Position numbers and translations under genes: made by a program
Origin: Verrucomicrobiota bacterium
Lineage (GTDB): Bacteria > Verrucomicrobiota > Verrucomicrobiia > Limisphaerales > CANJSG01
Length of the DNA stretch: 23,939 nucleotides
NCBI GenBank assembly: GCA_038209745.1
Contig: JBBQXJ010000074.1
Span: 1-23,939 of the forward strand
Direction of reading: 5' to 3'
The notes under the pieces: generated by a model
Told to the model about the DNA's origin: nothing
Seen by the model: the letters and a program-made list of their open reading frames with translations, nothing else
The model's database searches: none
In this document: positions 2,852-7,683 of the stretch, in pieces
Numbering within the stretch: the stretch's first letter is position 1
Layout of the letters: every line of letters starts with the position of its first letter

Positions 2852-3406
2852 ATGCTGACCATTCTCGCTATCGCCGCCACTGCTTGGGGAAGCCTGTTGT
2901 TCGCCGCCTGGTCTCTCGCCCGCGCCAATCGTCTTGAAGGCGGTATCGAAGAGGCCTTGGCCTTCGCCACCGCAGCGCCTGCGTTCGCGATGTCCCTGAG
3001 GGAAACCGCGCAGCCGATCCCGACGACTGGCCCGAAACGCACCGTCTTTGTGGTGGACGACGATCCGGGCGTGCTGGAACTGGTCACCGAGGTGTTGAAG
3101 ATCCAGGGCTTCACGGTCCGTGGCTTCACCGATCCGGTCGAGGCGCTCAATGATTTCAAGGCCGAACACGGCGACGACGACCTGCTGGTGACCGACTACC
3201 GGATGGAGCGGATGACCGGGCTCGAACTGATAAAAGGGTGTCGCGTCGAATGCCCGAGCCTCCGCTCCGTGGTCATCTCCGGCATCCGCGAAGAGGACGA
3301 GTTGGCCCGTATTCCCCTCGAATCCGATCGTTTCCTGGCCAAGCCCTTCAGCGTTCACGCGCTCATGGAGTCGATCGACTCGACCCTGGCCTTGGCCAAG
3401 AACTGA
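2852..3406 (+). CDS. Response regulator receiver (CheY-like) domain protein with N-terminal hydrophobic helix
   Basis: VFVVDDD, LVTDYRM (phospho-Asp), VISG, LAKPF; hydrophobic first ~24 aa; start uncertain. Confidence 0.85.
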   Translation: MLTILAIAATAWGSLLFAAWSLARANRLEGGIEEALAFATAAPAFAMSLRETAQPIPTTGPKRTVFVVDDDPGVLELVTEVLKIQGFTVRGFTDPVEALNDFKAEHGDDDLLVTDYRMERMTGLELIKGCRVECPSLRSVVISGIREEDELARIPLESDRFLAKPFSVHALMESIDSTLALAKN

Positions 3407-3421
3407 GGTCTCCCGTTTCTC

Positions 3422-3464
3422 AAGGCCCCGCCCGGCTTTCGCGCCGTTGGCGGGGCTTCTTTTT
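3422..3464 (+). terminator. Rho-independent terminator
   Basis: gccccgcc-cggc / gccg-ggcggggc stem followed by ttcttttt, just after the receiver gene. Confidence 0.75.
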
Positions 3465-3505
3465 GCCTTGGCCGCGCCGGTGGCTGCCGCATCGTCGGCG
3501 CACTG

Positions 3506-4036
3506 ATGAAGACTGAATCCCTGCACTTCGGGATGCGCGTGCGGCATCCGCAATACGGCGTCGGCACCGTCAAAAGCATTTCCGAGCACACGGCGGACAT
3601 CCGCTTCGAGGACCTGGTCCGGACGGTTTCGCCCGAGACCGGCGGACTGGAGCCGGCGGAGCCGCAAATCTCCGTCCAGAATCTGGAGCTGCCGTTGTCG
3701 GTGCTGATCTCCGAAACGGTCCAACGCGTGATCGAAGAGCTCGGATTGGAGCGCCCCGGCTCCGTGGTCGAACAGCTCGGGGCCCGCTGGCGGAATGGGA
3801 ACGTCCTTCTCAAGTCGGGCGATGGATCGACCCAGCCGAAGGAGATCCCGTTGGAGACGTTTTTCCACAAGATCGTGATGGTAAGGGATAGACTAAGGGT
3901 GCTGGAACAGAAGGTGAACGGCCACCCAGTTTTGACCGATGCAGAGAAAGTGGAGATGCAGCAATACGTCACTCGCTGCTACGGATCACTGACGACGTTC
4001 AATATCCTTTTCAAGGAGAAGGAGGACCATTTTTGA
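3506..4036 (+). CDS. Conserved hypothetical protein (N-terminal Tudor/SH3-like RVRHPQYGVGTV module, helical C-terminal domain); 3' end appears supplied by an insert
   Basis: 176-aa ORF with host-like codons up to ~3882, then AGG/AGA/CTA/GTA-type codons; C-terminal part duplicated at 5300-5479. Confidence 0.85.
   Translation: MKTESLHFGMRVRHPQYGVGTVKSISEHTADIRFEDLVRTVSPETGGLEPAEPQISVQNLELPLSVLISETVQRVIEELGLERPGSVVEQLGARWRNGNVLLKSGDGSTQPKEIPLETFFHKIVMVRDRLRVLEQKVNGHPVLTDAEKVEMQQYVTRCYGSLTTFNILFKEKEDHF
3981..4033 (+). repeat. 53-bp perfect direct repeat, copy 1
   Basis: acggatcactgacgacgttcaatatccttttcaaggagaaggaggaccatttt, identical to 5215-5267. Confidence 0.95.
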
Positions 4037-4067
4037 TGGTTCTGAATGGGAGAACGAAAAAAATGAA

Positions 4068-4442
4068 ATGGAGTGGTATGCCCTTTTTAAATATCGGACC
4101 CAACTTTTCTTCCGACTCACGCCCTCCAAAAATCGCGAAAAATTTCAATTTCCAACCCTTGCGGTCTACTCGCCGAGATCTACCCGCTTCAAAATTGTGA
4201 AATCTAGAAGACGACCGAGGTGAGGCTCACTTTTTGAACTTAGACTGCGGGGTGTCCACGTCGGAAATCCGGAGTTCAATTTCACGATGGCGATTGCGAG
4301 TGCCCAAGAGAAGCTTGCGGAGCAAGCAAGAGGGTTCCTTTCCGTTGCCTTCCAGTCAAAAGACGGAATTGCCATCAAGATGAGGGCGCTGGAAGATCCG
4401 ATGCTGGCCAGTGTTTGGGTGCTGCCTAATCGGGAAAGGTAG
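4068..4442 (+). pseudogene. Possible degraded cargo ORF with in-frame TGA at 4221-4223
   Basis: Single frame MEWYALFKYR...RRPR*GSLFELRLRGVHVGNPEFNFTMAIASAQEKLAEQARGFLSVAFQ...NRER*; no family recognised. Confidence 0.25.
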
Positions 4443-4512
4443 ACCCGAATAGACCGTTGCGAATCAAAGTCAAAACACATAATAATAAGACGCGACTGTA
4501 AGAGCACATCAC

Positions 4513-5115
4513 ATGAATGTATTTATCTTCAAGCATTTCAACGAACTTTTTGGGAAGCTCATTGTCACAAACATTCAGGAAATTCCTGAACGAATAGCGC
4601 ATTACCACAGACACAATAAACCAATTCCATTACATTCTTACGTTCAAGCGGGTGGCCAATACTGGACTGTCATTTCCGTTGAGCCAATTAAGTTACAGGA
4701 CGGCCGATTGGAAAATGATGATTTTGAAAGTCGCCAATCGCAACAAATAATTGATTCTGAGCAACGTCGCCAGGATGCTGAGCAACGTCGCCAGATTACG
4801 GTCGAGCAGATTCGCTCTCAGCTTACTAATTCACTCGCGATACTGCTCGTGAAGTATGTTAATTCAACAATCCGAATTAACTATCATCGCCCTGACTCCT
4901 GTGACGAGGCAACGCTGGTATCCATTACAGACGATTTCTTCACCGCTGAGATTCGACAACATCTGCCGCAGCGGCGTGAGTTTGTGCATGTTCCACTCAA
5001 TCAAATAATGCAAATCGTTGATGTGACAGGATTTCCTCCTTTTATAGCGATTGCGCAGCTTGTCATATACAAGAACAAGGGCGCGATGGGCATTGGAGTT
5101 TCATTTCCAATTTGA
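4513..5115 (+). CDS. Hypothetical cargo protein (AT-rich)
   Basis: 200-aa ORF in AT-richer DNA, where long ORFs are less likely by chance; Q/E/R-rich linker; ends LVIYKNKGAMGIGVSFPI. Confidence 0.7.
   Translation: MNVFIFKHFNELFGKLIVTNIQEIPERIAHYHRHNKPIPLHSYVQAGGQYWTVISVEPIKLQDGRLENDDFESRQSQQIIDSEQRRQDAEQRRQITVEQIRSQLTNSLAILLVKYVNSTIRINYHRPDSCDEATLVSITDDFFTAEIRQHLPQRREFVHVPLNQIMQIVDVTGFPPFIAIAQLVIYKNKGAMGIGVSFPI
4753..4794 (+). repeat. 21-bp tandem duplication (2 copies, 1 mismatch) within the cargo ORF
   Basis: gattctgagcaacgtcgccag / gatgctgagcaacgtcgccag, encoding DSEQRRQ / DAEQRRQ. Confidence 0.85.
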
Positions 5116-5214
5116 GGGCAATGCATAAGAATTGTTTTTCAGCCGAGCCAGCAAGTCGAGAGAACCGCCATGTCACATACGTGACCCCGTCTTATTTTTC
5201 TTCCACCGTTTACA

Positions 5215-5267
5215 ACGGATCACTGACGACGTTCAATATCCTTTTCAAGGAGAAGGAGGACCATTTT
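5215..5267 (+). repeat. 53-bp perfect direct repeat, copy 2
   Basis: Identical to 3981-4033; followed by GGA where copy 1 has the TGA stop. Confidence 0.95.
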
Positions 5268-5299
5268 GGAAACTACCCAACAGATGGTTCCTCTGGCTG

Positions 5300-5479
5300 G
5301 TGATGGTCCGGAACAACCTCCGGGTGCTGGAACAGAAGATCAACGCCCACCCAGTTTTGACCGATGCCGACAAGGTGGAGCTCCAGCAATACGTCACCCG
5401 AAGCTACGGATCGCTGACGACCTTCAACGTCCTGTTCAAGATCGAAGGCGACAAGTTCCGCGGAGCGAGCGAGGGGTAG
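5300..5479 (+). pseudogene. Displaced original 3' end of the 3506 gene
   Basis: [59 protein letters not shown]; 41/53 aa identical to the present C-terminus; host-like G/C-ending codons; stop is 7 bp from the convergent gene's stop. Confidence 0.85.
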
Positions 5480-5486
5480 ATCGACC

Positions 5487-6254
5487 TCACCGCGCCGGGC
5501 CGGTGACGTCCTGGAGGCGTCGCGTTTCGATGAACTTCTTCAACTCGTCCTTGCTGCTGAGGAACCGCATCGTATCCACGATGAGGGAGACCCCGGCGGG
5601 ATCGCTGATCCAGTCCATGGACAGTTTGGCGCATTCCATCCGGCGTTCGTCGAAGGTGAAGAGGGTGAGGATTTCGGCGGTCTGCTGGCAGGTCAATCGG
5701 CCACGGAGGCCCCTGTCCTGGAGGCGCATCTTGGCCATCTTGGCGTCGTCGAACGGTTCCTTGCGGAGCGATTCGAGGATGCCGGCCAGTTCCTCCGCGC
5801 CAACGGGGGCGGGCCGGGAGATCACCGGTGGCCCGCCGACGGGTGGAACGGGACGACGCATCGCGGTCAAACGGTCATGGAGCCGGAAGACCTTGGAGAA
5901 CGTCTCGAAGGCGTCGTAGACGTCGTAGAAGTTTTCCGGGTCCGCGACATGGGGAAAGGCGGCGGCGGCGAATTCGATCCGCTCGTCCTCGTCGTCGATC
6001 TCCTTCGCCAGTCGCTTCACCTGTTGGCTGGAAAGGGTGCGCTTGAAGAAGCTGAGTTCGGCCCGCCGCATGCGCTCGGCCCGGTCGGGGGCGGCCTTCC
6101 ATTCCGAGACTCCGCGTTCGAACTCCGCGTCGGCCGGTTTGGTGTTCTCCGGCTCGGCGCCCTGGACACTCGGAGCGATCAACGAAAGGACGAGGAGAAT
6201 GACGGCCGTCCACCCGGGCCCGGTGACGCGGTGGATCAAGGAACAGGTTTTCAT
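5487..6254 (-). CDS. Exported protein with two DUF4476-like domains
   Basis: Signal-peptide-like N-terminus (WTAVILLVLSLIAPSVQGA); two repeats of the LS/T..Q......F..D.ER.E.A......DP pattern joined by a Pro-rich linker. Confidence 0.75.
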   Translation of the reverse strand: MKTCSLIHRVTGPGWTAVILLVLSLIAPSVQGAEPENTKPADAEFERGVSEWKAAPDRAERMRRAELSFFKRTLSSQQVKRLAKEIDDEDERIEFAAAAFPHVADPENFYDVYDAFETFSKVFRLHDRLTAMRRPVPPVGGPPVISRPAPVGAEELAGILESLRKEPFDDAKMAKMRLQDRGLRGRLTCQQTAEILTLFTFDERRMECAKLSMDWISDPAGVSLIVDTMRFLSSKDELKKFIETRRLQDVTGPAR

Positions 6255-6297
6255 GGGGGTGGGTTGGATGTCGGACGGGCGGAGGGTAAGGAAGCGG

Positions 6298-7683
6298 TCA
6301 GCCTCCGGGAGCGGCGGCGGTCGTGGACAACCAACGCTGGGCGCCTTCGAGATCGTCAAATCTTCCCTCCAGCTGCGCTTCGTAGGCCGTCTTGAGGAGT
6401 TCGCCAAACGCCGGGCCGGCGGGAAGCCCTCGTTCCAGCAGATGCCGCCCGAGAAGGATCGGTTTGGGCGCTTCCGCCCGGACGCGGAGAACCGCCGCCC
6501 GCTCCAGCAGTTCCGTGACGCCGGCGGGAACGACGGCCGGTTTGGGCGGCCGACCCATGTGGTCGGCGGTCATCACGACACAGAGCCCGTTGATGTTCCC
6601 CGGCTCCAACCGTTTGGAAAGGCGACGCACGGCGTGATCGGTCCAAGCGCAGTGGCAGGACATGTGGTTGCGGATCAGCGGCGGAACGTGGTGGCGCAGG
6701 ATGTTCGGCAAACCGAGGCGATCAAAGAATGCTTCGGCTGGAGGGAGGCCGGCGGATTCATGGCCGGGAGAGACGATACGTTCTTGCCCGTGGCGCTCGG
6801 CCCTCGCGGTGGTCAGTGGCTTGCCGACGTCGTGCAGCAGCACCGCCAACGAATAGATCGCGCGGCCCGTGTCGTCGGCTTCCTGCCAGGCAGGCAGGGT
6901 CACGAGGGCGTCCAGACAATGGCCGGTGTGGACGAAGACATTCCCCTCCGGATGCCATTCGGGATCTTGTGGCGTCTCCACCATGGCCGCGAGTTCCGGA
7001 TAGTTCTCGAGCCAGCCGGAATCGGCGAGGAAGCGCAGGCCCAGCGAGGGCTTCGTGCTGCGGGTGGCCCATTTGAGCCATTCGTCGCGGACCCGCTCCA
7101 CGGCCAGTTCCGCGTGGGTGTGGCGGATGCTCCGGCAGAGCTCCAGCGTGCCGGGCGCGGCCACGAGCTGGAACCGAGCGGCGAACTGCATCCCGCGGAG
7201 CACGCGCAAGGGGTCCTCCGTGAAGGCGTCGCTGGTGTGGCGGAGAACGCCCTTCTCCAGGTCTGCCTTGCCGCCGAAGAAGTCGAGCGTCTCGCCGGAG
7301 CGCGGATCGAACATCAGGGCGTTGATCGTGAAGTCGCGGCGGGCCGCGGCTTCTTCCGGAGACAGACCGGGATCGAGCTCCACGCTGAAGCCTTTGTGGC
7401 CGGGCGCCGTCTTGGAATCACGCCGAGCGATGGAGAAATCGAACTGGGACTGGTCCGGCCCGGAGAGCTTGACCACGCCAAACGATTTGCCGACCAGATC
7501 GACCCGCCCCCACGGTTCCAAGGCGCGGACCAGCTCGGGATAGCCGAGCCCGAAGACCTCGATGTCGAAGTCCTTCACCGCTCGGCCCAGGAGGCCGTCC
7601 CGCACGCAGCCGCCGACGAGATACGCGCGCTTCAGCGCGGGCGTTTCGGTCAGGATGCGATGGAGCAGCGGAGGAAGATTCAC
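6298..7683 (-). CDS. cca: CCA tRNA nucleotidyltransferase / poly(A) polymerase family with HD domain
   Basis: LVGGCVRD..LG...KDFD, RRDFTINA, EDPLRVLR, HPEGNVFVHT, LLHDVGK; GTG start at 7683 inferred. Confidence 0.9.
   Translation of the reverse strand: MNLPPLLHRILTETPALKRAYLVGGCVRDGLLGRAVKDFDIEVFGLGYPELVRALEPWGRVDLVGKSFGVVKLSGPDQSQFDFSIARRDSKTAPGHKGFSVELDPGLSPEEAAARRDFTINALMFDPRSGETLDFFGGKADLEKGVLRHTSDAFTEDPLRVLRGMQFAARFQLVAAPGTLELCRSIRHTHAELAVERVRDEWLKWATRSTKPSLGLRFLADSGWLENYPELAAMVETPQDPEWHPEGNVFVHTGHCLDALVTLPAWQEADDTGRAIYSLAVLLHDVGKPLTTARAERHGQERIVSPGHESAGLPPAEAFFDRLGLPNILRHHVPPLIRNHMSCHCAWTDHAVRRLSKRLEPGNINGLCVVMTADHMGRPPKPAVVPAGVTELLERAAVLRVRAEAPKPILLGRHLLERGLPAGPAFGELLKTAYEAQLEGRFDDLEGAQRWLSTTAAAPGG

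Follow-up and report, generated by a model that had tools for sequence, protein, structure and literature searches.

Organization of the locus

The stretch of DNA analyzed here, the window, spans 23,939 nucleotides of contig JBBQXJ010000074.1 from a Verrucomicrobiota bacterium. At its center of interest is a gene whose 176-residue ortholog occurs in 291 of the 401 genomes of the order. In the encoded protein, a UvrD/PcrA-type Tudor domain at the N terminus precedes a helical middle region, and an AF2 model of the protein reached a mean pLDDT of 76.3. Pfam matches stayed below the cut-off. With Foldseek, the Tudor domain aligned to 7egt_B (TM 0.89, E 5.8e-4, rmsd 1.0 over 47 columns), with further matches to 7egs_B, 9dqs and 5dma. 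On the basis of the model, the target protein is predicted to have a Tudor fold of the type that binds the β lobe of RNA polymerase or UvrB.

The 3′ end of this gene is present twice, once attached to the reading frame (tail A) and once downstream (tail B). The original prediction had described 41 identical amino acids in 53 and 13 synonymous codon differences, and we obtained the same counts. Aligned from the GTG of codon 124, the two tails agree at 125 of 159 nucleotides and 41 of 53 amino acids, and their codons differ by 13 synonymous and 12 non-synonymous changes. The repeat as a whole (3863–4015 and 5288–5440) is 81% identical over 153 nt at a spacing of 1425. Both tails begin at the 8-bp sequence GTGATGGT, found at 3875–3882 and again at 5300–5307, exactly where the homology had been proposed to start. 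The codon contrast that had been noted is also present: GC3 is 0.84 in the 5′ part of the gene and 0.85 in tail B, versus 0.66 in tail A. GC content is 0.40–0.50 within the insert and 0.60–0.70 in the flanks. Tail B lies next to the convergent DUF4476 gene, as had been seen, with its stop codon at 5479 and the end of the neighboring gene at 5487.

Table 1. Features of the locus, in window coordinates.
Feature	Position	Strand	Remarks
Native 5′ part of the target gene (codons 1–123)	3506..3874	+	GC3 0.84; aligns to 176-aa ortholog
Left junction, attL-like	3853..3896	.	Conserved B arm, then GT of codon V124, then start of tail A
8-bp direct repeat GTGATGGT, copy 1	3875..3882	+	Fits both sides of the empty-allele joint
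Tail A, putative replacement tail of foreign RDR/EDHF type (codons 124–176 and stop)	3875..4036	+	GC3 0.66
TGATGGT and tail-start-like scrap TGATGGTTCTGAATGG directly after tail A	4034..4049	+	11/16 versus start of tail B, by eye; weak
AT-rich cargo	4037..5163	.	GC 0.40–0.52
ORF of 200 aa	4513..5115	+	ORFan, may not be a real gene; AF2 pLDDT 33.6
IS21-family terminal repeat remnant, 51 nt	5164..5214	+	Outer end (...TTTACA) at 5214
Partial second copy of the tail-A end	5215..5270	+	Truncated precisely where the IS ends
Linker and right-end arm of the insert	5271..5299	+	Contains GATGGTTCC, tail-start-like; weakly B-arm-like; weak evidence
8-bp direct repeat GTGATGGT, copy 2	5300..5307	+	Fits both sides of the empty-allele joint
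Tail B, displaced native tail (59 codons and stop)	5300..5479	+	GC3 0.85; 86% aa identity to G002
Convergent DUF4476 gene, native downstream neighbor	5487..6407	-	Pfam E 1e-26; synteny alike in G002

The attached tail is of another subfamily

Compared with the tail of the closest genome, G002, tail B is identical at 144 of 159 positions and tail A at 116. The same-genus relatives have ends resembling tail B rather than the EKEDHF end of tail A, the distribution expected if tail B is the native one. Tail A instead shares 82–87% amino acid identity with proteins of the RDR type and retains all invariant residues of the tail. An RDR motif was present in 23 of 26 hand-picked, mostly short proteins, many of which also end in EDHF, and the only members of this type seen with a named source were proteins from Saprospiraceae MAGs. 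Within the order, tails were read in 21 orthologs belonging to other genomes, and one of them (G057) had RDR; the motif was found in none of 14 proteins resembling the gene copy carried by an element in the genome G242 (see below).

By its sequence, tail A belongs to the RDR/EDHF subfamily of the target protein family, and we read it as a putatively expressed replacement tail, joined in frame. The codons of tail A had been interpreted as recoded and foreign, and we considered whether a recoded patch is unique to cassette tails. We rejected this idea because the RDR...EDHF stretch is the ordinary sequence of another subfamily, with no special recoding.

The insertion is precise and strain-variable

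An empty allele had been predicted in which the gene runs directly into tail B. Contigs from two other sediment metagenomes, X2 and X3 (5552 nt and 8427 nt, at depths of 8.6 and 27.9), omit exactly 3875–5299 and join 3874 to 5300, the joint foreseen, with 8 nt that fit either side. G002 likewise has no insert; its gene has a tail-B-like end and is followed by the DUF4476 gene and a CCA enzyme. The insertion is therefore real and strain-variable, measuring 1425 bp (window 3883–5307) and lying inside codon V124. Relative to the empty allele, which may be the ancestral state, there are 7 differences in 5300–5582 versus 0–2 in 5583–6000, and this crowding near the insert points to an old haplotype.

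The empty alleles also bear on the state of the displaced tail. They differ from tail B at 5393, 5401, 5442 and 5452, and an N-to-I change in tail B is absent both from them and from G002. With this change of its own, tail B looks like a decaying copy and not like a maintained silent alternative, which speaks against the suggestion that excision could restore a silent C-terminus. A further idea, that tail B had been converted by tail A at 5346–5366, was dropped, since the empty alleles have identical letters there.

A pair of similar repeats separated by 1.4 kb, one lying at a gene's 3′ end, could in principle reflect an assembly chimera of two strains or the VR/TR pair of a diversity-generating retroelement. 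We regard either origin as extremely unlikely, and both were refuted as candidates. Independent contigs from the run X1 span both junctions (3372–4033 and 5238–5407), so that the concern about a chimeric assembly raised with the original prediction does not apply, and a related structure of the G057 type is present in a second assembly, L060. The mismatches of tail A hit all four bases (A 13, G 12, T 7, C 2) and are not adenine-specific, and a reverse transcriptase was not found. A transposon or IS with an 8-bp target duplication was rejected as well: the borders have no terminal inverted repeats, there is no transposase, and the only inverted pair (4481–4492 and 5188–5199) is internal to the insert. 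The one IS end present, of the IS21 family, sits 85 nt inside the right border.

The insert is a composite

The original prediction held that a 1425-bp cassette had entered the gene, displaced its native tail and supplied a foreign one. These parts of the claim stand. The insert is, however, no clean single cassette but a composite that includes the remnant of an IS21 end, another, truncated tail A and tail-start-like scraps. The partial copy at 5215–5270, the third tail-like segment of the locus, is 98% identical to 3981–4036, and the IS21 remnant meets it exactly at 5214/5215. This remnant is 80–86% identical to multicopy IS termini beside istA starts (10 loci in 6 genomes) and 84% identical to the IS copies of its own genome at C126 and C102. 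A third exact TGATGGT occurs at 4034–4040, overlapping the stop codon of tail A, and tail-start-like remnants lie 3′ of each tail-A copy. Taken together, the partial tail-A copy, the IS21 end and the tail-start-like remnants suggest that two or more units were stacked here and have decayed.

The remainder of the insert gave few matches. Across the 401 genomes of the order, the cargo at 4037–5163 had a single match of 32 nt (E 5.9e-4) and no other, and an Rfam search of 3400–5600 matched no family. For the 200-residue ORF, a homolog search of 5.8 billion proteins returned only the query itself; Pfam, PADLOC and the protein atlas yielded nothing usable, and PHROGs and NCBIfam gave sub-threshold matches only. 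No recombination or transfer genes were found in the insert. Contigs from X14 cover 4014–4193.

Serine recombinase elements use the same codon in relatives

LSR (large serine recombinase) elements recombine attP with attB at a 2-bp core within short sites of about 40–50 bp, as described in PMC12286644. In two relatives, G113 and G242, elements have their crossover point at the GT of codon 124. In G242, an LSR gene with Resolvase, Recombinase and Zn_ribbon_recom domains starts 45 nt from the GT; in G113, attL and attR share the GT only and mismatch to either side of it. Each of the two elements has a dyad-symmetric attP (16/22, a value reached by 0 of 5000 shuffles). Dyad symmetry of attB was seen in four of five genomes (12–14/22, p<=0.003), with 8/22 in G051, and the reconstructed attB of the window is itself symmetric about the GT (13/22, shuffle p=0.0006).

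Both the G113 and the G242 element truncate the host gene. The latter also carries its own copy of the target gene, with 35% identity to the window protein; at least its first 103 codons are present, the contig ending inside it. Two further genomes have small inserts at this site. G051 contains a 581-bp insert without a recombinase and with a single DUF6968 gene, whose P arm matches that of G113 at 16/22. G057 contains a 228-bp recombinase-less insert whose tail agrees with tail A at 23 of its first 26 nt; its inner arm matches the P arms of G051 and G113 at 12/22, and its circle junction is not dyad-symmetric (6/22). We read the G051 and G057 inserts, together with that of the window, as a decay series at one site.

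The window insert is less easily assigned to such elements by its own ends. The circle junction reconstructed for it lacks dyad symmetry (8/22, p=0.17), and its right arm matches the P arms of G051, G113 and G242 at only 3–4/22. Compared with attB, the insert ends match at 14/22 (P′ versus B′) and 10/22 (P versus B); the last 22 nt of the right-end arm match the B arm at 10/22. The attL and attR of the window share 8 bp, a stretch beginning with the GT, in which a 2-bp core may lie.

The insert had been predicted to lack a recombinase, and we found none in the insert or in the window. For an orphan recombinase elsewhere in the genome, which the original prediction suggested looking for, the outcome depended on the enzyme class. 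The serine recombinase profiles PF07508 and PF00239 had no match in the window genome, which is 92% complete, nor was a homolog of the G242 LSR present; the tyrosine recombinase profile PF00589 matched eight times in the genome, with no match inside the window. Homologs of the LSR occur in 31 of the 401 genomes. Second LSR matches in G056, G243, G201, G348 and G097 were set aside as fragments or noise. The recombinases seen adjoining this site are serine recombinases only.

A motif search for an intact element with a tail of the tail-A type returned only G057 among genome contigs and nothing among viral contigs. Among metagenome contigs it gave 10 matches, of which only L060 (G057-like) encodes the target gene. 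C136, considered as a circular plasmid, was rejected as such (kinase-gene repeat). The original prediction had also looked to other genes with displaced 3′ ends, and in a genome-wide self-comparison only this locus qualified.

Origin of the insertion

We consider it probable that the insert is a CIME- or pseudo-SCC-like remnant at a serine recombinase attachment site, composed of at least two stacked, decayed units. A first unit would have contributed tail A, derived from an RDR/EDHF-type homolog of another lineage, together with the AT-rich cargo. A second unit would have left only 55 nt from the end of a second tail A and the 29-nt linker, having been shortened by an IS21-family insertion and a later deletion. 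Native tail B was displaced downstream, where it would now be drifting. The insertion itself was presumably made by a serine recombinase and can probably no longer move by itself; mobilization in trans is possible. The segment had been predicted not to be the deletion remnant of a larger integrase-bearing island. The insert is indeed without an integrase, but its site is the crossover point of LSR elements in relatives, which comes close to that very outcome.

Several observations count against an LSR remnant. The circle junction is asymmetric and the right arm is unlike LSR-type P arms. In just one of the 31 genomes with LSR homologs (G242) does an LSR lie beside a displaced tail, and among genome, viral and metagenome contigs no element turned up that combines an LSR with an RDR-type tail. 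A recombinase could also reside in the unassembled part of the 92%-complete genome. Lastly, the identity of 84% between the IS remnant and the resident copies fits decay before arrival, that is, movement of a unit already lacking its recombinase.

This last point would suit an active non-autonomous cassette, in which the 1425-bp unit or its subunits are moved by a recombinase acting in trans, as in integrons or SCC, with the tail rebuilding both gene and site. Such a cassette, which may have come in already decayed, would also account for the precise empty allele, for the recurrence of small recombinase-less units at this GT in three families (G000, G051 and G057), for X2 and X3 pieces of the insert at a depth of 2.4–2.5 beside the empty allele at 8.6–27.9 (contigs only), and for an X14 contig in which a different sequence, running up to GTGATGG, is joined at the same place. 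We nevertheless think current activity unlikely. No serine recombinase was found in the genome, the junction has no attP-like symmetry, and no circle junction was seen among the contigs, a weak point since it draws on contig data only. Judging by the diverged haplotype island that surrounds the insert, the allele seems old and inherited vertically or by homologous recombination, and units of 190–230 bp are too small for plausible mobile circles. Less likely still is a broader version, in which codon 124 would be the landing pad of an integron-like serine recombinase cassette system whose units are stacked and shuffled in trans, swapping C-terminal modules. If true, each recombinase-less unit would bring a replacement for the C-terminal helical hairpin, restoring both the gene and a target site that can be used, and the swaps would cross lineage subfamilies, from RN[NQ]/EDQF to RDR/EDHF, altering the action of the protein.

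A route independent of any recombinase is improbable in our judgment. Homology-facilitated illegitimate recombination, or a Campbell-type event at microhomology, would have brought in the tail of a foreign homolog together with the DNA downstream of it, and the overlap with the LSR site would merely mirror the strong sequence conservation there. The B arm is in fact the most conserved DNA stretch of the gene (15–20/22 between families). In G346, a duplication of aa 92–176 and the neighboring glyoxalase gene flanks integrase-free cargo in a Campbell-like arrangement, and an X14 contig is native-like at the start of the tail and tail-A-like from 3944. Against this, both borders fall in the same 8 bp, whose first two bases are the GT at which the elements of G113 and G242 cross over, and five independent displaced tails begin within about 4 codons of V124. 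RecA needs far more than 8 bp of homology, and the shared sequence is thus far short of its requirement.

The 8-bp identity would fit the overlap region of a tyrosine recombinase, for which such a length is typical, and in this respect also counts against the LSR reading. The enzyme could be element-borne or a host Xer-like protein that recombines a pair of similar sites, and GTGATGGT would serve as the overlap. Both insert ends resemble attB, as in elements that use dif-like sites, and the genome holds the eight PF00589 matches. We assign this explanation a very small probability, because none of the eight lies inside the window, only serine recombinases were seen next to the site, the identity at the G057 junction breaks after the GT (GTA versus GTG), and G113 shares the GT only.

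Implications and comparison with known systems

Read as a serine recombinase scar, the locus adds a new attachment site in Verrucomicrobiota to the protein-gene landing pads of serine recombinase elements, in a widely conserved gene predicted to encode a UvrD-type Tudor-domain protein. One codon is treated in three ways: the G113 element truncates the gene, that of G242 truncates it and brings a gene copy, and in G000, G051 and G057 an in-frame tail is supplied. Such a tail swap is a natural chimera between protein subfamilies with the invariant residues retained, a ready-made domain-swap experiment, and the presence/absence polymorphism over several sediment metagenomes allows one to measure directly how the scar is gained, is lost and decays. 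The findings do not establish a new kind of mobile element; the window insert is a further example of an already known type of scar.

The SCC/SCCmec and pseudo-SCC elements at the 3′ end of rlmH (orfX) in staphylococci resemble the window in that a conserved gene is hit in its 3′ part and the element reconstitutes the gene end. They are inserted by the large serine recombinases Ccr, which are LSRs with relaxed site choice. SCC units are delimited by direct repeats that include the site of integration and can be stacked in tandem. Units without ccr exist and are thought to rely on the recombinase of a neighbor, according to PMC2900268. The window differs from SCC in its phylum and target gene, in that 53 of 176 codons (~30%, a whole helical hairpin) are replaced instead of a few, in that the replacement tail comes from another protein subfamily, and in that a recombinase was not found in the genome.

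The recombinase-less insert with a stacked second unit also matches CIMEs (cis-mobilizable elements) and the accretion of integrative elements. The CIME cases are mostly elements with tyrosine integrases, in tRNA or protein genes of streptococci. At the window, the borders fall on the GT where the elements of G113 and G242 cross over, and the gene end recurs, but element-side arms are not recognizable.

Replacement of a long gene end is familiar from the icd gene of E. coli, where phage 21 and e14 supply an alternative for the last ~50 codons with many silent differences, keep the gene functional and displace the native end. Those are full-size prophages with tyrosine integrases, whereas the window insert is small, recombinase-less and located at a serine recombinase site. 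The G242 and G113 elements, with their truncated host gene, fit the pattern of LSR elements such as SPbeta and A118. Elements of that type usually leave the gene broken until excision, whereas the window insert restores the tail in frame.

Filled and empty alleles of the target gene

Tail A, the attached end of the target gene, and tail B, the displaced copy, form a direct repeat of 153 nt at 81% identity, and both begin with GTGATGGT. From the GTG of codon 124 they match at 125/159 nt and 41/53 amino acids, with 12 non-synonymous and 13 synonymous codon differences; our codon comparison reproduced the original prediction's counts of amino acid identity and synonymous differences exactly. GC3 is 0.66 in tail A, 0.85 in tail B and 0.84 in the 5' part of the gene, and the DNA separating the tails has a GC content of 0.40-0.50, compared with 0.60-0.70 in the flanks. 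The convergent DUF4476 gene ends 8 nt beyond the stop of tail B. The motif TGATGGT occurs 10 times in the whole window (1.84 expected; 10 reached in 0/100 shuffles); three copies fall in the tail/insert locus, and that at 4034-4040 overlaps the chimeric gene's stop codon.

Features of the target locus in the window and of related loci (LSR, large serine recombinase; G051, G057, G113 and G242, genomes of relatives)
Feature	Position or size	Description
Target gene	3506-4036	176 aa; its 53-codon end is tail A
Tail A	3875-4036	attached end of the target gene
Tail B	5300-5479	paralogous tail, 1425 bp downstream of tail A
Third, partial tail copy	5215-5270	98% identical to 3981-4036
IS21-family terminal repeat, outer 51 nt	5164-5214	directly ahead of the partial tail copy
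Tail-start-like stretch behind tail A	4034	TGATGGTTC
Tail-start-like stretch behind partial tail-A copy	5283	GATGGTTCC
G242 host gene	cut at ...CACAAGATCGT	reads HKIVI-stop
G242 LSR gene	begins after 45 nt of element DNA on the other side of the cut	516 aa; Resolvase + Recombinase + Zn_ribbon_recom
G051 insert	581 bp	tail start 21/22 identical to native, one DUF6968 gene, right arm 16/22 identical to G113 P arm
G057 insert	228 bp	present too in an independent metagenome contig (L060)

Logan contigs from four metagenome runs (X1, X2, X3 and X14) were aligned to window positions 3300-6000. X1, in which 0.82 of the sampled words occur and which probably represents the source sample, bridges both insert junctions (contigs over 3372-4033 and 5238-5407). 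The original prediction had proposed a search for an empty allele, and contigs of 5552 and 8427 nt in X2 and X3, runs from other studies, join 3874 straight to 5300 (depth 8.6 and 27.9), omitting 1425 nt, with 8 nt that fit either side of the joint. Insert pieces of 151 nt are also present in these two runs at depth 2.4-2.5. In X14, a loose contig end ahead of 5300 carries the target gene's own upstream sequence and is thus an empty allele, and in another contig an unlike sequence of 255 nt or more runs right up to GTGATGG, indicating that a different insert occupies this place. In G002, the closest genome (80% amino acid identity), the insert is absent: the target gene has a tail-B-like end, and DUF4476 and the CCA enzyme come after it; 5/5 same-genus orthologs also have a tail-B-like end (...DKFRG...). 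Because the empty alleles, G002 and these orthologs all end in this way, tail B is the native end and tail A the foreign one. The predicted insertion inside the gene, displacing its native tail, is borne out by the empty alleles in X2, X3, X14 and G002; it is real and strain-variable, and presence/absence polymorphism at this locus is well documented.

Differences between filled and empty alleles bunch beside the insert (7 in 5300-5582 and 0-2 in 5583-6000; 3806 and 3851 on the left side), which looks like an old haplotype island. Four fall within tail B, two of them residue-changing, and since an N to I change is found in the displaced copy alone, tail B appears to be drifting. Additionally, in X14, a soil metagenome, 4014-4193 is covered by four or more short contigs (86-123 nt, 90-99% identical), up to five at single positions. 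This takes in the initial ~160 nt after tail A, a stretch with no match in 401 genomes of the order.

The swapped part of the protein

The target gene was matched in 49/61 genomes of one sample and in 291/401 genomes of the order in another, and its protein matched no Pfam or NCBIfam family at cut-off. An AlphaFold model built from 25 sequences (mean pLDDT 76.3) predicts a beta-barrel at the N-terminus, together with two helices, a hairpin and a pair of long helices (116-138 and 145-163). By structure match, the predicted barrel corresponds to the C-terminal Tudor domain of UvrD/PcrA (7egt_B, E 5.8e-4, TM 0.89, rmsd 1.0); matches include 7egs, which is bound to the RNA polymerase lobe. Because codon 124 falls within predicted helix 116-138, the swapped part is predicted to be the C-terminal helical hairpin. 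Every invariant tail residue of the alignment is kept in tail A.

The codons GTA AGG GAT AGA CTA AGG (VRDRLR) of tail A were considered as element-specific recoding and this was rejected. A search with residues 117-176 returned at least 7997 relatives; RDR occurs in 23 of 26 selected ones, mostly short, many of which end in EDHF too. Among those selected are stand-alone proteins of 112-129 aa that lack the Tudor domain, as well as two partial proteins whose names assign them to Saprospiraceae MAGs, and tail A is 82-87% identical to those of RDR type. Within the order, RDR was read only in the attached tails of the window's genome and G057, the latter being the single case among 21 orthologs with tails read (window's own gene excluded). 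By its sequence, tail A is an ordinary tail of another subfamily, which makes the protein of the filled allele a natural inter-subfamily chimera. The C-terminal ~100 aa recur as a widespread stand-alone family of the RDR/EDHF type (112-129 aa, no Tudor domain), and one 286-aa protein has two tandem copies of this module.

Insertions at the same codon in relatives

Displaced tails beginning within ~4 codons of V124 were found in five genomes. In G242, a small resolvase gene lies behind the LSR gene, and the element carries its own divergent target-gene copy, 35% identical to the window's protein, which meets the contig end after 103 codons. The 14 relatives of this copy examined are of normal length and type, and 0/14 proteins resembling it have RDR. 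In G113, GT alone is common to attL and attR, with mismatches on both sides, and 44 nt further in there is an IS21-family element. Dyad symmetry about the GT is seen at the attP sites of G113 and G242 (16/22; reached by 0/5000 shuffles) and at attB in G000 (the window's genome), G057, G113 and G242 (12-14/22, p<=0.003); attB of G051 is not symmetric (8/22). Such dyad-symmetric att sites are marks of serine-recombinase sites, and serine recombinases need just two short sites of about 40-50 bp (PMC12286644). The G051 insert is read as a decayed member of this family of elements. The tail start of G057 agrees with tail A at 23/26 nt, the remainder being about 68% identical, and its inner arm agrees with the G051 and G113 P arms at 12/22 positions.

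Displaced copies of a second class (G346, G132 and G133) begin at aa 89-92 and look to be of different origin, a Campbell-type duplication in one case and with an IS21 element nearby in another. In G346, one contig (L033 4255-9817) has the full target gene and a truncated convergent glyoxalase-like gene, and the end of another (L027 9555-10865) a frameshifted aa 92-176 copy and the intact glyoxalase-like gene. The cargo between the copies encodes a 1220-aa protein, PEP-CTERM proteins and no integrase, and the arrangement looks like a Campbell-type duplication around cargo. In G133, a fragment (aa 89-134) of another allele lies ~115 nt downstream of the full gene (L030 6788-7570).

In G039 (L025 1391-4063), ~2 kb of high-GC DNA, in which two putative metabolic-type genes appeared on reading the DNA, separates the full gene from a tail fragment (aa 144-176). 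In G218 the contig with the target gene also has an LSR homolog, on the same strand and 34 kb further downstream (C99:65600-66127 and 100352-101443), and no displaced tail was detected on that contig. The ortholog of G053 is broken by a run of N plus a repeated TTTCCGATCGAGGTTTTTTTT motif (L024 1842-1851), most likely a scaffolding gap and not an insertion.

Make-up and origin of the insert

The original prediction of a single cassette did not hold: with its third, partial tail copy, its IS21 end and its tail-start-like stretches, the insert is a palimpsest made up of two or more units. The IS end (...TTTACA) is 80-86% identical to 10 multicopy IS termini in six genomes, most of them at or near contig ends with an istA start ~100 nt inside. 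It finishes at 5214, exactly where the partial tail starts, which suggests that a second complete tail A was formerly present at this place; it would have been cut by an IS21-family element and its remainder lost by later deletion. Within a 200-aa ORFan of the insert, a 21-bp tandem duplication (GATKCTGAGCAACGTCGCCAG x2, 95% identical; 4753-4794) repeats the peptide SEQRRQD. Elsewhere in the genome, a second low-GC insert (C24:54263-55093; 785 bp, GC 0.45 vs 0.62-0.64) is flanked by 46-nt direct repeats (96% identical) plus inner 24-nt repeats; it is intergenic, with a small ORF of ~130 aa and no gene tail involved.

The insertion is exact at the 8-bp repeat; this repeat opens with GT, the dinucleotide that the G113 and G242 elements use, the latter with an adjoining LSR. 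As predicted, the insert contains no recombinase, nor does the window. Elsewhere in the genome there are eight tyrosine-recombinase matches, and no serine recombinase was found in the 92% complete genome. We infer that a serine recombinase made the insertion or insertions, the remainder being a scar stack like those of CIMEs (cis-mobilizable elements) or pseudo-SCC (SCC, staphylococcal cassette). Two observations count against a plain 'attP with tail' model: the insert lacks symmetry where its ends are rejoined (8/22, p=0.17), and its right arm, weakly B-arm-like (10/22), does not resemble LSR-type P arms (3-4/22). The chimeric gene may have formed in situ, the cut host gene recombining within the highly conserved B arm with a gene copy carried by an element, as in G242, or tail-bearing units may have inserted successively; both routes fit the data. 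The IS remnant is just 84% identical to the genome's own copies of that IS (C126 and C102), which hints that an already decayed unit may have been moved in trans.

Prophages that replace icd offer a further analogue of gene-tail replacement. The closest analogues of this insert are the SCC and pseudo-SCC cassettes found at rlmH (PMC2900268), together with CIMEs that undergo accretion (PMC5704250).
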